This document shows, in pieces, positions 21,884-49,134 of a DNA stretch of 64,000 nucleotides. The stretch lies in the IMG/VR virus record IMGVR_UViG_3300025018_000091. One strand, 5' to 3'. This DNA comes from a virus (lineage: Duplodnaviria > Caudoviricetes). How positions within the stretch are numbered: the stretch's first letter is position 1; each line of letters starts with the position of its first letter. The translations under genes and the position numbers were made by a program. The notes under the pieces are model-generated. The model made no database searches, was not told the DNA's origin, and worked only from the letters and a program-made list of their open reading frames with translations.

Positions 21884-21953
21884 GTGCGTCGGGTTGGACT
21901 CAAACCAACGTTTCCAGATTGCTCTGGCGTTACGTCACCTTAACTACCAATGC
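21884..21953 (-). ncRNA. tRNA-shaped RNA with a GCAA tetraloop replacing the anticodon loop
   Basis: Acceptor, D (GUUA/UAAC) and T (GUUGG/CCAAC) arms intact; CCAGA-GCAA-UCUGG. Confidence 0.65.
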
Positions 21954-21978
21954 GATGTATTCCTTTCGGCATACGCCA

Positions 21979-22053
21979 TGGAGCGGGTGAAGGGATTTGA
22001 ACCCTCAACTTCAAACTTGGAAGGATTGTACTCTACCATTGAGTTACACCCGC
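21979..22053 (-). tRNA. tRNA-Gly(TCC)
   Basis: Cloverleaf, CT TCC AA, CCA. Confidence 0.92.
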
Positions 22054-22150
22054 ACATTACATATAACATTTTATGCCCCAGTTAACCATTTAATATTTTC
22101 AAATCCAACATATTTTTGTATTACTCCATATTGATAGTTAAAAGTTCATA

Positions 22151-22585
22151 TCACTTAGTAAGCTTGTAAATACAAAACTTATTTTTCTTTTCAACTACAA
22201 TCGGCAAATTCAACAAAACATTCCACTGCCCTGTTCCTTTAGAAGTTATTCCTTCTTTCTTAATATCTCTTCTTACTACAATATATGCAGTACCTCCCAC
22301 CTTTAAATAACTTTTAATCGCATTTACAATCTCGTTTACTATTTGTGGCTTAACAACATTTAAAACATAATTGCAAATAATTGTATCATATTGATGATTA
22401 GGTTTTTGTGGAAAATAATATGGATCATATTTGTCTGCTAATAACAAATTAGCATCACTACCACGACCACACCCGTAATCTAAAAGATCTCCTTTTAATA
22501 GATCATTGTCACTAATATATTGTGCCGGTAATGATAATTTATTTCTAGAAATTGCTGTCAAATATGATTTATCATCAAGTTCCAT
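22151..22585 (-). CDS. Class I SAM-dependent methyltransferase
   Basis: LLDYGCGRG, YDPYY and YDTIICNYVLNVV. Confidence 0.88.
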   Translation of the reverse strand: MELDDKSYLTAISRNKLSLPAQYISDNDLLKGDLLDYGCGRGSDANLLLADKYDPYYFPQKPNHQYDTIICNYVLNVVKPQIVNEIVNAIKSYLKVGGTAYIVVRRDIKKEGITSKGTGQWNVLLNLPIVVEKKNKFCIYKLTK

Positions 22586-23054
22586 TATAGCTTCTCTATC
22601 CTCAATAAATAAGGATCTACATAAAAATAACCACGTTTATAATCTGCATAACCTTCTGTTCTATTAAAAGAAGATCGTTTTCCATCACTTCTCTTTGGTG
22701 CATTAGGAAGATTATGCACTGTCTTAATCTGTAAATAAATCTTTATTTCTGGCGAATCTACTGATTGTAACCAATAGTAATAATACTTAAATCCTCACCG
22801 GGAAGATTATTAAAATCTACATAATTACCAAATTTAGATTTAACTTTACTTCTAATATTATTCAATTTAAACTCTATATAAGGACCATGATCCCCATACA
22901 CAATTCGTTCATATCCTTTAAATAATAGAGTCCCAGAAGAAGGCGAATAGAACTCAGTTGAGAAATCTCCCTCTTCAGATAGGTCTAGTTTAGATTCCAA
23001 CTCTTCTTTATCTTGCAATCTATTCTCATAAATTGCGGTTGTTTGAAAAACCAT
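22585..23054 (-). CDS. Hypothetical protein (YGDHGPYIEF ... YADYK); frameshift near 22789-22791
   Basis: A second frame continues KYYYYWLQ...GYADYKRGYFYVDP to TAA at 22585. Confidence 0.6.
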
Positions 23055-23087
23055 ATGTAATACTCAATTATAATCTATTCTGTGGTG

Positions 23088-23162
23088 TGGTGTATGGTGC
23101 AGGATTTGAACCAGCAACCTTCTGCGAGTCGAGCAGACGCACTACCGTTGTGCTAACCATAC
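23088..23162 (-). tRNA. tRNA-Val(GAC), atypical loop
   Basis: Cloverleaf with loop TC GAC TC, CCA. Confidence 0.7.
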
Positions 23163-23351
23163 ATTTATCTCGGAACTTTTTCTTCACTAATACAGCAAGA
23201 ATCTGTTAATGTAAATTGAGACCTGTATTTCTCCCAAGAACATGGTCCGTGATGACCAATTGGCAAATTGCAGCGTAATTTTAAATCAAAAGAGCTGAAA
23301 GGCGCTATAAGCCCACATAAACCGTCATATGATTCTATAGAACTCATTTAG

Positions 23352-23424
23352 TGCGCCGTATGGGACTCGAACCTATAACTTCCACCTTGTAAGGATGGCA
23401 CTCTAACCATTGAGTTAACAGCGC
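23352..23424 (-). tRNA. tRNA-Val(TAC)
   Basis: CT TAC AA; no encoded CCA. Confidence 0.9.
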
Positions 23425-23427
23425 AAA

Positions 23428-23504
23428 TGGTGTCGCTGGTCGGAATCGAACCGGACCTTGGATCGCTTATGAAACGATTGCCATCACCAGATGACTACAG
23501 CGGC
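23428..23504 (-). tRNA. tRNA with CAT anticodon (Met or Ile2)
   Basis: TT CAT AA, CCA. Confidence 0.88.
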
Positions 23505-23540
23505 ATTACGTATGGTATATATCAGATTATTCATATAATG

Positions 23541-23870
23541 TCATGAAAACGCAGCTATCTTATTTACTCTGCGCATTAATTTTTCAGTCTCTTTAGCCAT
23601 TTCATCTGCAAATGGTTTAGCTAATATTAATACCTTATCTAATTTATCGTTTTCTAACCATAATACATCACCATTTTTAATTTCCCTGTCAACAGATGTA
23701 TATCCAAATCCCCAATGTGAACTATATTCAAATATATAAGCGAGAGGATAAACTAAAAGTTTTAGAAAATACCCATTACAACAAACTTCTATTACATATG
23801 GAACCTTACCACAAGTAAAGTGTTGTAAATAAATAGTTTTATAATCAGTATCAGTTGACATATTATTCAT
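23541..23870 (-). CDS. Hypothetical protein
   Basis: 109 aa ORF. Confidence 0.5.
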   Translation of the reverse strand: MNNMSTDTDYKTIYLQHFTCGKVPYVIEVCCNGYFLKLLVYPLAYIFEYSSHWGFGYTSVDREIKNGDVLWLENDKLDKVLILAKPFADEMAKETEKLMRRVNKIAAFS

Positions 23871-47424: not shown

Positions 47425-47508
47425 TGGTGGGGACGGTAGGATTCGAACCTACATTGCTCAAGACGGCATCTTTATCGGATGCTGAGAGACCCATCTCTCT
47501 TCGCCCCC
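47425..47508 (-). tRNA. Class II tRNA with atypical loop CG ATA AA
   Basis: GCATC/GATGC stem, long variable arm, canonical T arm, CCA. Confidence 0.6.
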
Positions 47509-47550
47509 ATTGGATATTAAATTATCAGCGATCAAGACGTCCCATGACGT

Positions 47551-47639
47551 TGGTGCCGCCTGGTGGAATCGAACCACATAGCCACTCGGGGCGCCTGATT
47601 TACAGTCAGGAGATCCTCCCAGGAATCTAGTCAGTCGGC
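47551..47639 (-). tRNA. tRNA-Tyr(GTA)
   Basis: CT GTA AA, long variable arm, CCA. Confidence 0.9.
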
Positions 47640-47803
47640 ATTATATTTTGAATTGAATGTATTTATCTCCTAAAGTTATAGAATTTTTAGTTATTAAAGG
47701 TACTGAAACTACATAATTATTACTAATAAAGTAATAAATTGCTGCCGCCAACCCTACATCTCCCTGTTTTTTAGTATTTACTTGATTAAACATGAGACAA
47801 TAT

Positions 47804-47871
47804 TAACTGACAAAATATAGTGTAGATGTTTTTGGTCAAATATCAATGTAATCCACACAAGCATTCAGTTA
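47804..47871 (-). ncRNA. Minimal Y RNA copy Y10 (stem module only)
   Basis: UAACUGAAUGC/UUGUCAGUUA; GUGUGGAU/AUCUACAC. Confidence 0.75.
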
Positions 47872-47961
47872 TAGTAAAATTAAACGAATTTAATCGAATA
47901 ACTTTATATCGAACCCTACCAATATTACAGCATACAAATATTGATGATACTTAGGAGTAAT

Positions 47962-48613
47962 ATGAGGCAAGGTAAAATAGCATCTATCACAAACGAAGAA
48001 TTAACAACCCTTATACAAAACAATATATCATTGAAAAACGTTTTGTTATTTTTAAATCTACATCCGAGTAGTGGAAAATAGAAGATTAAAACAAAAATTA
48101 GAACAAGAGAATATCAATTACGATCATATCAAAAATGGTTCGGGATACGATCCCTCCAAAATACATACATTTAGAAAGCATGTATCATTGAATGATGTTC
48201 TTACTCTAAACTCTTCTTATAGTCCAAGATTACTTAAGAAGCGTCTTATAAAAGAAGGTTTATTATTCAACTATTGTAATGTATGTAATATACAGCCACT
48301 TTGGAATAATCTACCACTTCAATTACAGTTAGATCATATCAATGGTAACAATAGAGATAATAGGTTGGAAAATCTAAGATTATTATGCCCTAATTGTCAT
48401 TCCCAGACAGACACATTCGCTGCCAAAAATAAAATCAAAAAGAACAAACCTACAAAAATAGTACAACCACGAAAAACAAAGATAACTTGGCCAGATGACA
48501 ATGAGTTGCTAGATTTAGTAACAAACTCAAATTTTGTTCAAGTTGCCGCAACACTTGGTGTAAGTGATAATGCTATTAGAAAAAGATTAAAAAGAGCGGG
48601 GCTAATCAAATAA
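47962..48613 (+). CDS. HNH homing endonuclease; frameshift in the A4 run at 48075-48078
   Basis: Paralog of 18330-19058 including the upstream-frame N-terminus MRQGKIASIT; LQLDHINGNNRDNRLENLRLLCPNCH. Confidence 0.88.
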
Positions 48614-48619
48614 TTAGCT

Positions 48620-48691
48620 TGGCAGGTGTGGTAGGTAACGATCCCACTAGTAGAAGTTTTGGAGGCTTCCCTCTCACCTTGAGTCACACCC
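48620..48691 (-). tRNA. tRNA-Trp(CCA)
   Basis: CT CCA AA, CCA. Confidence 0.85.
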
Positions 48692-48877
48692 AAATAATTA
48701 CTATAATTGTAACTTATAATAATCATTCGATAAATTTCGGATTCATTATAAAATAAATCTAAGTGATTTTGGACGTCACTTACATCCCTATTTACCTAGA
48801 GGAAAATAACGATTCCCCTAATCTCTATGCATCGATGCATACTTTGTTAATTAATGTTACACTTAATTAACAAAGCT

Positions 48878-48990
48878 TGGTGCGGAAGGTTGGAATTAAA
48901 CCAACAACCTTCGGGTTAATCATTTAAACTCTAGTGTCGACGTTATCCATCAACTCAAGTCCCGGCGCTCCTTCTTCAAGCCGCTTCCAC
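48878..48990 (-). ncRNA. Met-like tRNA with about 38 extra nt (a hairpin) in the anticodon loop
   Basis: GUGGAAG/CUUCCGC acceptor, D arm GCUU/GAGC, CGGG/CCCG stem, insert helix GUUGAUG/CGUCGAC, T arm, ACCA. Confidence 0.7.
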
Positions 48991-48993
48991 ATA

Positions 48994-49058
48994 AAGGTAA
49001 CAAAAAGTGTAAAGATTGTTTTTTTAATGGTTAGATGTAATCCTTACGGCATTTACCT
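48994..49058 (-). ncRNA. Minimal Y RNA copy Y11
   Basis: AAGGUAAAUGC/UUGUUACCUU; GUAAGGAUU/AAUCUUUAC. Confidence 0.75.
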
Positions 49059-49134
49059 TGGTAGGAAAGGTTGGACTTCAACCAACGTCCTGACAACCTT
49101 TACGTTGCCTGCTCTTTCTCTGAGCTACTTCCCT
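49059..49134 (-). ncRNA. tRNA-like element with a 6-bp anticodon stem and 6-nt loop
   Basis: D arm GCUC/GAGC, GGCAAC-GUAAAG-GUUGUC, T arm, ACCA. Confidence 0.6.

Follow-up and report, generated by a model that had tools for sequence, protein, structure and literature searches.

tRNA-shaped elements with non-canonical anticodon loops lie end to end with Y-RNA-like genes in the tRNA array of an uncultured huge phage

The uncultured huge phage represented by the IMG/VR record IMGVR_UViG_3300025018_000091 (Duplodnaviria; Caudoviricetes), of which we analyzed a stretch of 64,000 nucleotides (nt; hereafter the window), carries a long tRNA array in which ordinary tRNA genes are mixed with elements that have the shape of a tRNA and an anticodon loop of non-canonical length or sequence. 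We found that these elements keep their helices and usually an encoded CCA end, that their stems covary among related phages, that the elbow formed by the D and T loops is mostly lost, and that most of them lie end to end with genes resembling Y RNAs, in the vicinity of a gene coding for an orthologue of Ro60. Our favored interpretation, which we hold tentatively and to which we give a little less than an even chance, is that they are disarmed tRNA bodies kept as handles for RNase P and 3'-end processing, and as spacers that fold autonomously, within polycistronic tracts of non-coding RNAs and tRNAs.

The array runs on the minus strand from ~49.1 kb down to 18.3 kb and includes 27 ordinary tRNA genes and two 'tRNA-???' calls according to ARAGORN. 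Eight cloverleaf RNAs with aberrant anticodon loops had been proposed here by a sequence-only reading of the same DNA. We parsed the elements by hand and checked them with RNAfold, ARAGORN, and Rfam, and all eight (E1 to E8) are real, on the minus strand and at the places where they had been proposed. They do not constitute the one family that had been suggested, and fall into at least four groups: the E8 type, the E1 type, a G55 type (E2, E3, E4, and E6), and others.

The G55 type is marked by a T-loop of the form TG[ACT]AA[AG]T and by an A/T-rich D loop without GG. Three of its members are cloverleafs with 21/21 stem pairs: E3 (43920-43997), which has a 6-nt loop AGATTA, the D loop AAAATACA, the T-loop TGAAAAC, and a GCCA end; E4 (44294-44376), which has the D loop AATAATTA, the T-loop TGCAAAT, an ACCA end, and an 'anticodon' arm made of an extended palindrome with 15 nt between the strands of a 5-base-pair (bp) stem; and E6 (45908-45982), which has a 6-nt loop ATTTCA, the D loop AAGTTTTAT, the T-loop TGAAAGT, and an ACCA end. 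The fourth, E2 (42334-42399), has a 7-bp AU-rich acceptor, a 4-5-bp stem with the 3-nt loop TGA, the T-loop TGCAAAT, and no CCA, and may be degenerating. E8 (49059-49134) forms 22/22 stem pairs and has a 6-bp stem with a 6-nt loop GTAAAG (8 nt if the closing C-G pair opens), a D loop AGAGAAA without GG, the T-loop TTGAAGT, and an ACCA end. E1 (21884-21953), which is flanked by tRNA-Gly(TCC) and tRNA-Gly(GCC), forms 6/7 acceptor pairs, a 4-bp D stem, and a 5-bp 'anticodon' stem capped by GCAA, and has the T-loop TTTGAGT and a tail ACAA, with no CCA. Concerning the last two, E5 (44453-44529) is a low-scoring cloverleaf, called Ser(tga) by ARAGORN at a lowered threshold only, with the T-loop ATCGAAA, an ACCA end, and a 7-nt loop AATGAAC that has A at position 33 (no U33). 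E7 (46984-47059) is the weakest: its terminal stem and its hairpin, which has a GTGA cap, are each of 9 bp, its T-like stem has 4 bp, and it lacks both a clear D arm and CCA.

An NCCA end is therefore encoded in five of the eight (E3, E4, E5, E6, and E8). Against the Rfam tRNA family (RF00005, gathering threshold 29 bits), E1, E6, and E8 score 38.9, 35.3, and 42.8 bits, respectively, and E2, E3, E4, E5, and E7 are unreported even at E <= 10. E1, E3, E4, E6, and E8 are full cloverleafs, complete in acceptor, D, anticodon, and T arms; E2 and E5 are less regular, and a clear D arm is missing from E7. None has an anticodon loop of 7 nt in which U33 is combined with a purine at position 37: the loops are of 3, 4, 6, 6, 6/8, and 15 nt, and that of E5, listed among the aberrant ones, has the normal 7 nt and is anomalous by the missing U33. 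The G18G19/T54-Psi55-C56 elbow is likewise absent, with GG present only in the D loops of E1 and E5, and with T-loops of the types TG[ACT]AA.., TTGAAGT, or TTTGAGT.

Further elements of this kind, absent from the earlier list, were found on the same strand. At 48878-48990, a 113-nt element has a 7-bp acceptor, the T-loop TTTAATT, an ACCA end, an extra hairpin, and a long branched insert that replaces the anticodon arm. A neighbour of E2 (42254-42329) has the T-loop TGCAAGT, a 6-nt loop TTTCCC, and no clean CCA. A minihelix made of an acceptor and a T arm, with neither D nor anticodon arm, lies at 43651-43690, and several low-scoring cloverleafs lie within 46082-46326. One of the latter (46082-46154, minus strand), as well as a cloverleaf in another phage (L011, 18685-18767), is low-scoring and has an anticodon TTA, which would read UAA, together with a non-canonical T-loop; ARAGORN also makes CTA-anticodon calls in one relative. 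Moreover, a 161-nt element (43998-44158, minus strand) has a canonical acceptor, a D arm with GG, a T arm TTCGAAT, an ACCA end, and an insert of ~85 nt in the anticodon region, and may represent a tRNA with an intron-like insert.

The tRNA-shaped structures are real and far beyond chance. A permissive cloverleaf scanner gave hundreds of false matches in coding DNA. When we instead demanded a D stem, an NCCA end, T54, A58, 7/7 acceptor pairs, and a 5/5 T stem with G53-C61, 21 sites were found in the window, including E3, E4, E6, E8, and 48878-48990, versus none in each of 30 dinucleotide shuffles. Nor are the 6-nt loops due to sequencing or assembly error, since contigs from the source run show zero differences from the window, the E8 sequence is identical in a second aquifer sample, and none of the indels listed in contigs of related strains (soil and subsurface runs) lies inside the E8 or E4 loops. 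All changes observed in these strains in the 'anticodon' stems of E8 and E4 keep pairing (A-U to G-U, G-U to G-C). The sequence-only reading had raised the possibility that raw reads would show normal 7-nt loops; in our comparison, which was made on contigs, independent contigs have the same loop lengths.

It had also been proposed that the stems are preserved and only the anticodon loop is altered. The stems are indeed intact, yet changes are usual also in the GG of the D loop and the TTC of the T-loop. Taking these two motifs together as the elbow signature in 116 strict cloverleafs from seven arrays, we found it lost in 16 of the 26 that have a non-canonical anticodon loop, compared with three of the 90 that have a canonical one (Fisher p = 2e-10). 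Because the two losses coincide, an alteration of the loop alone understates the change. Retained despite them are the helices, U8, A14, T54, A58, and CCA. With an anticodon loop of any length and an elbow that is mostly lost, the elements cannot decode, and therefore cannot replace cleaved tRNAs.

The G55 T-loop was also considered as a marker of non-decoding elements, and was dropped because TGCAA.. T-loops occur in other phages with normal anticodon loops and a D-loop 'AG'. Many unrelated phage tRNAs with normal anticodon loops (L018-L075, other IMG/VR phages) in fact pair a TGCAA.. (G55) T-loop with an AG-for-GG D loop, and this A18/G55 combination looks like a recurrent alternative elbow in phage tRNAs.

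The Ro60/Rsr orthologue (54951-56522, minus strand) has TROVE and Ro60 vWA domains and lies upstream of the array. Through this protein we matched eight relatives (68-77% identity) among IMG/VR contigs of up to 359 kb, three of which were extended, and in each of them a similar tRNA array is found downstream of Ro60. Positions 40000-50000 of the window have no match at the DNA level in GenBank phages by megablast, and a blastn-short search of the eight elements against the relatives recovered orthologues of E8 only, the others being located by position and structure. E8 orthologues have an invariant D arm and 100% stem pairing, the acceptor and T stems showing compensatory changes, and a central loop of 6, 8, or 15 nt, the longest of which holds a small hairpin capped by GTAA or GAAA. 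E1 has a positional orthologue in a relative, flanked by the same two Gly tRNAs and with a 6-nt loop GTAATA versus GCAA; the D, anticodon, and T stems of the two covary. That such orthologues might turn out to be ordinary tRNAs had been recognized by the sequence-only reading as a danger to its proposal, and neither those of E8 nor that of E1 are. In five relatives, the element preceding the first Y-RNA-like gene has loops CGTACAG, CTTTAACT, CAGAAAA, GCATAAAAAT, and ATTAAAAAC, with lengths of 7, 8, 9, and 10 nt and none with U33 in a 7-nt frame, and a group defined by the D arm GTG-TAATTAG-CAC, located after Y5, has loops of 7, 6/8, and 9-10 nt. For E7, the same Pro-Glu gap of two relatives holds no similar element, and no orthologue was detected.

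G55-type elements could be aligned across four phages (E2, E3, E4, and E6 plus six elements from three relatives; ten sequences). From this alignment alone, RNAalifold predicts the acceptor, D, and T stems, with double changes in 13 of 16 pairs, and 96.8% of the stem cells are paired, versus 66% in shuffles (none of 500 reaches the observed value) and 35-53% when partner columns are slid. A covariance model built from the ten sequences (R1) gives 57-75 bits to nine of its founders and to one new member, while the remaining founder, E2, obtains 48.5 bits and ordinary tRNAs at most 49. Covariation of the stems extends among phages whose Ro60 proteins are only ~70% identical, and the helices are under selection.

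Many of the same elements are neighbours of a second type of RNA gene. Right after CCA ends, we found a 20-nt motif with seven matches (at most three mismatches) versus 0.02 expected. In Rfam, 45759-45906 aligns to the whole model of the Y RNA YrlA, whose conserved 5' strand corresponds to the 20-nt motif; the match has 28.9 bits, which is below the gathering score of 69, and E = 1e-4 in a small search. When the 5' motif was paired by script with a 3' strand, 12-13 of 13 positions paired, and the terminal stems covary strongly. The predicted module consists of N6, AATGC, a 7-bp stem, TACA, the 3' strand of the stem, a T-rich linker, and N6'. There are ~11 such Y-RNA-like genes in the window and two to six per relative. 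Nine of those in the window, all on the minus strand, lie within 43347-49058 (48995-49058, 47805-47870, 45763-45905, 45178-45455, 44532-44677, 44167-44291, 43696-43918, 43347-43448, and a 5' half from 46079 with E6 directly after it); a further one occupies 21613-21746, and there is a probable one, with its start near 40891, also on the minus strand. Some are minimal, of ~60-66 nt, such as 48995-49058, which has no internal tRNA-like domain, and others, such as 45763-45905, contain a permuted T arm, an acceptor hairpin whose loop often encodes ACCA, and a D arm, an organization also known from the M. smegmatis YrlA that is a substrate of RNase P (PMC4201824). The closest relative (L004, Ro60 77% identical) has at 14618-15100 four tandem minimal Y RNAs with a period of 142 nt, which are the counterpart of 47805-47870 in the window; the four copies share their upstream sequence, which suggests a promoter-bearing repeat unit.

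Elements and Y-RNA-like genes are arranged end to end. Of the ten script-paired Y 5' ends in the window, nine fall between -1 and +3 nt relative to the CCA of an element that is either a tRNA or shaped like one, and the probable eleventh near 40891, after a tRNA-Phe, would fit the same spacing; many Y 3' ends are located 2-9 nt ahead of the next tRNA-shaped element. The same pattern is found in every relative. A Y RNA begins 1 nt after E3, 2 nt after E4, 2 nt after E6 (in this case a YrlA-like one), and with a 0-nt gap after E8 (a minimal one). On the other side, E5 begins 2 nt past a YrlA-like Y RNA, 48878-48990 begins 4 nt past the Y RNA 48995-49058, and the minihelix at 43651-43690 begins 5 nt past the 3' end of 43696-43918. 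Canonical Lys, Asn, Gly, and Phe tRNAs flank other Y RNAs likewise. A Y RNA follows six of 26 non-canonical elements versus five of 90 canonical ones (p = 0.015). At 42000-49400, a search of the minus strand for terminator-like sites found none, and a scan for sigma-70 promoters was uninformative (36 matches versus 24 +/- 5 in shuffles).

The window also encodes a bacterial type A RNase P RNA (33413-33761, minus strand), which matches the full-length Rfam model with 278 bits and retains the L15 sequence CCGGGU, including GGU. In type A RNase P, the GGU of L15 base-pairs with the CCA of the substrate. The earlier suggestion that the elements act as processing signals fits this anatomy of Y RNAs starting next to CCA ends in a terminator-poor tract of a phage with its own RNase P RNA.

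Under such a scenario, the elements would be descended from phage tRNA genes, in which selection would keep the four helices, U8/A14, the T54-A58 core of the T-loop, and usually an encoded NCCA, leaving the anticodon loop free to vary in length (3, 4, 6, 8, 10, 15 nt, or a large insert) and the G18G19/T55C56 elbow mostly lost. They sit in long terminator-poor tracts that mix tRNAs and Y-RNA-like genes and that we infer to be co-transcribed. RNase P, either the host enzyme or the phage RNA together with a host protein, would cut at the 5' side of an element and thereby free the 3' end of the upstream RNA, while the Y RNA that begins 0-3 nt further on would acquire its 5' end through 3' maturation at the CCA. 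Ordinary tRNAs may serve the same role at other Y RNAs. Duplication of a tRNA-Y unit would provide copies whose tRNA part was retained for processing and stripped of decoding; such bodies would probably not be aminoacylated, and the loss of the elbow would avoid engaging the translation apparatus. A role as handles would explain at once why the helices and CCA are conserved, why the loop is free and the elbow lost, and why the genes are laid out in this way.

Several points weigh against this proposal. Cleavage, co-transcription, and expression of the array are predicted from DNA sequence, and the Y-RNA identity of the neighbours is likewise putative, based on a YrlA match below threshold, a shared motif, covarying terminal stems, and the presence of Ro60. 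RNase P requires just a minihelix of acceptor and T arm, and handles alone leave the retention of the D and anticodon stems unexplained; these may be required for folding fidelity or by 3'-end enzymes. E1, E2, and E7 are not adjacent to a Y RNA. Some copies may be decaying, given the partly degenerate look of E2, 42254-42329, and E7. Finally, similar cloverleafs with non-canonical loops occur in tRNA arrays of unrelated phages without a TROVE gene, one of whose genomes is complete at 179 kb, which implies that the role is not specific to Y RNAs.

This last observation, together with the conservation of the helices of a full L-shape and of CCA, including an anticodon stem that RNase P does not need, would also be expected if the elements were decoys or inhibitors of host factors that recognize a tRNA by its body and not by its anticodon, for example defence nucleases whose cleavage sites are acceptor ends, tails, or whole anticodon arms, and that would bind the elements without finding useful substrates. 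Several loops have stable tetraloop caps (GCAA, GTGA, and the GTAA/GAAA of E8 orthologues), and tRNA-targeting defence nucleases are widespread (PMC10264068). Titrating catalytic nucleases against the large pool of host tRNAs would however be quantitatively hard, and we consider this explanation unlikely, if the best placed of the alternatives. The more specific version put forward by the sequence-only reading, in which the elements resist or decoy anticodon nucleases (PrrC, RloC, or VapC) or sensors of uncharged tRNA, is not supported: loops that bait such nucleases should resemble their targets, yet both their length and their sequence vary freely, also from one orthologue to another, and sensing by RelA or T-boxes needs anticodon pairing and the elbow that contacts T-boxes and the ribosome, both of which are lost.

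Non-functional tRNA pseudogenes tolerated in a fast-duplicating array are a plausible explanation for E2, 42254-42329, and E7, which lack a clean CCA and have weak or AU-rich stems, the last being also without detectable orthologue, and the array is rich in duplications, homing-endonuclease genes, and low-scoring tRNAs. For the intact covarying elements it is not plausible, and for the set as a whole we judge it improbable. In pseudogenes, stem mismatches should accumulate as fast as loop changes, whereas pairing is kept in 96.8-100% of the stem cells and compensatory changes are numerous (E2 and E7 lie outside this test); E3, E4, E6, and E8 keep all of their 21 or 22 stem pairs though conserved loop positions have changed, and positional orthologues persist with different loop lengths. 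The earlier argument against random decay is thus borne out, among paralogues and positional orthologues as well as in strain variants.

Alternatively, the elements could be parts of a Ro60-Y RNA particle, in which each would stay joined to, or pair with, a minimal Y RNA and so supply in normal topology the tRNA-like module of YrlA. The short distance from CCA to the Y terminal stem (0-3 nt) would suit such an arrangement, as would the lack of a tRNA-like domain in minimal Y RNAs such as 48995-49058 and its presence in YrlA-like copies such as 45763-45905; YrlA itself mimics tRNA, and that of M. smegmatis is cut by RNase P and gains CCA (PMC4201824). Yet other Y RNAs are flanked at these positions by canonical decoding tRNAs, phages without TROVE have comparable elements, and E1 and E2 have no adjacent Y RNA, so that we regard this possibility, too, as an improbable one.

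Expanded anticodon loops can suppress frameshifts, and ARAGORN reports 6- and 8-nt loops in the window and in relatives; that the elements are unusual decoders, such as frameshift-promoting tRNAs with 8- or 6-nt anticodon loops, is nonetheless very improbable, given loops of 3 to 15 nt and beyond that differ between orthologues, no U33, no purine at position 37, a lost elbow, and a G3:U70 pair (which would allow anticodon-independent charging) in none of the elements.

The processing handles that we favor have partial counterparts in other systems. In mitochondrial tRNA punctuation, and in the release of mascRNA from MALAT1 by RNase P and RNase Z, a tRNA fold is the cleavage signal that sets the ends of the adjacent RNA. 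Mitochondrial punctuation uses decoding tRNAs, and mascRNA is eukaryotic, whereas this phage has dedicated non-decoding bodies beside normal tRNAs, plus its own RNase P RNA. A likeness is also found with the TMERs of murine gammaherpesvirus 68 (MHV68), where a virus-encoded, non-decoding tRNA-like element lies directly upstream of another small RNA, which is released by tRNase Z (PMC4838037). With gaps of -1 to +3 nt on the upstream side of the Y RNAs and of 2-9 nt on their downstream side, the layout agrees with a fold that abuts a small RNA in the manner of TMERs or mascRNA. However, TMERs are eukaryotic Pol III units with pre-miRNA hairpins, while the phage elements are bacterial-type, with encoded CCA, long arrays, Y-RNA-like neighbours, and a processing that is only predicted.

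YrlA (Rfam RF02553) is also a tRNA mimic linked to Ro60/Rsr, and in M. smegmatis has a 7-bp acceptor, cleavage by RNase P, and CCA addition (Chen et al. 2014, PMC4201824). It differs in having a circularly permuted tRNA-like domain closed by a Ro60-binding stem. In the phage elements the topology is normal, the acceptor ends are free, and a Ro60-binding module is lacking: the terminal stem with a Ro60-binding motif of the GNCGAA type and the permuted domain are absent from them, and it is the adjacent RNAs that have the stem. They are therefore neighbours of Y RNAs and not members of that family. Anticodon-nuclease-insensitive phage tRNAs resemble the elements in being phage tRNA genes with altered anticodon loops, with the difference that they keep a decoding 7-nt loop with point changes predicted to block cleavage (van den Berg et al. 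2023, PMC10264068), while here the decoding geometry is lost altogether. Phage-borne Ro60 and Y RNAs are already known (PMC4201824, PMC12135203, PMC7824862); our literature searches found no description of conserved non-decoding, elbow-less tRNA bodies interleaved with a phage Y-RNA array.

Other genes of the window include those for EF-Ts, two ADP-ribosylglycohydrolases, PARG, NAMPT, NMNAT-Nudix, CoaB- and CoaC-like proteins, RNase HII, and several HNH endonucleases. Pfam scans of 30 open reading frames, which left smaller ones outside, detected none of RtcB, RNase Z, RnpA, or a CCA-adding enzyme. The EF-Ts gene (19612-20550, minus strand; EF_TS domain, E = 1e-44) lies inside the tRNA region. 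The two ADP-ribosylglycohydrolases and the PARG, which is of microbial type, lie at 3460-4377, 29044-29934, and 52905-53756 (minus strand), and together with NAMPT (10116-11450) and NMNAT-Nudix (12506-13522) make up an NAD/ADP-ribose toolkit around the RNA island. A UvrD-type helicase gene (813-3371, minus strand) is broken by an intein, with an Intein_splicing domain within residues 304-587.

A broader possibility, which we find rather doubtful, is that the huge phages of this clade run a self-contained biogenesis of non-coding RNAs, in which maintained disarmed bodies would be cis handles for the phage RNase P RNA and host 3'-end enzymes that carve ~10 Y RNAs for the phage Ro60. Because similar bodies are found in phages without Ro60, they may also belong to a general, so far unrecognized kind of stable phage RNA that has the shape of a tRNA and its own function.

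The tRNA arrays of phages are commonly taken to supplement codon usage or to replace tRNAs that host defence systems have cleaved. The present case differs, in that part of the array is selected for tRNA shape and CCA ends and against decoding, end to end with a Ro60/Y-RNA system and in a phage that has its own RNase P RNA. In genome annotation, such elements should not be entered as tRNAs, nor should they be dismissed as junk. If they are indeed processing handles, they would represent a bacterial-virus counterpart to the tRNA-miRNA units of herpesviruses, would account for many of the 'tRNA-???' calls in huge-phage genomes, and would provide a concrete and testable route for the production of phage Y RNAs.

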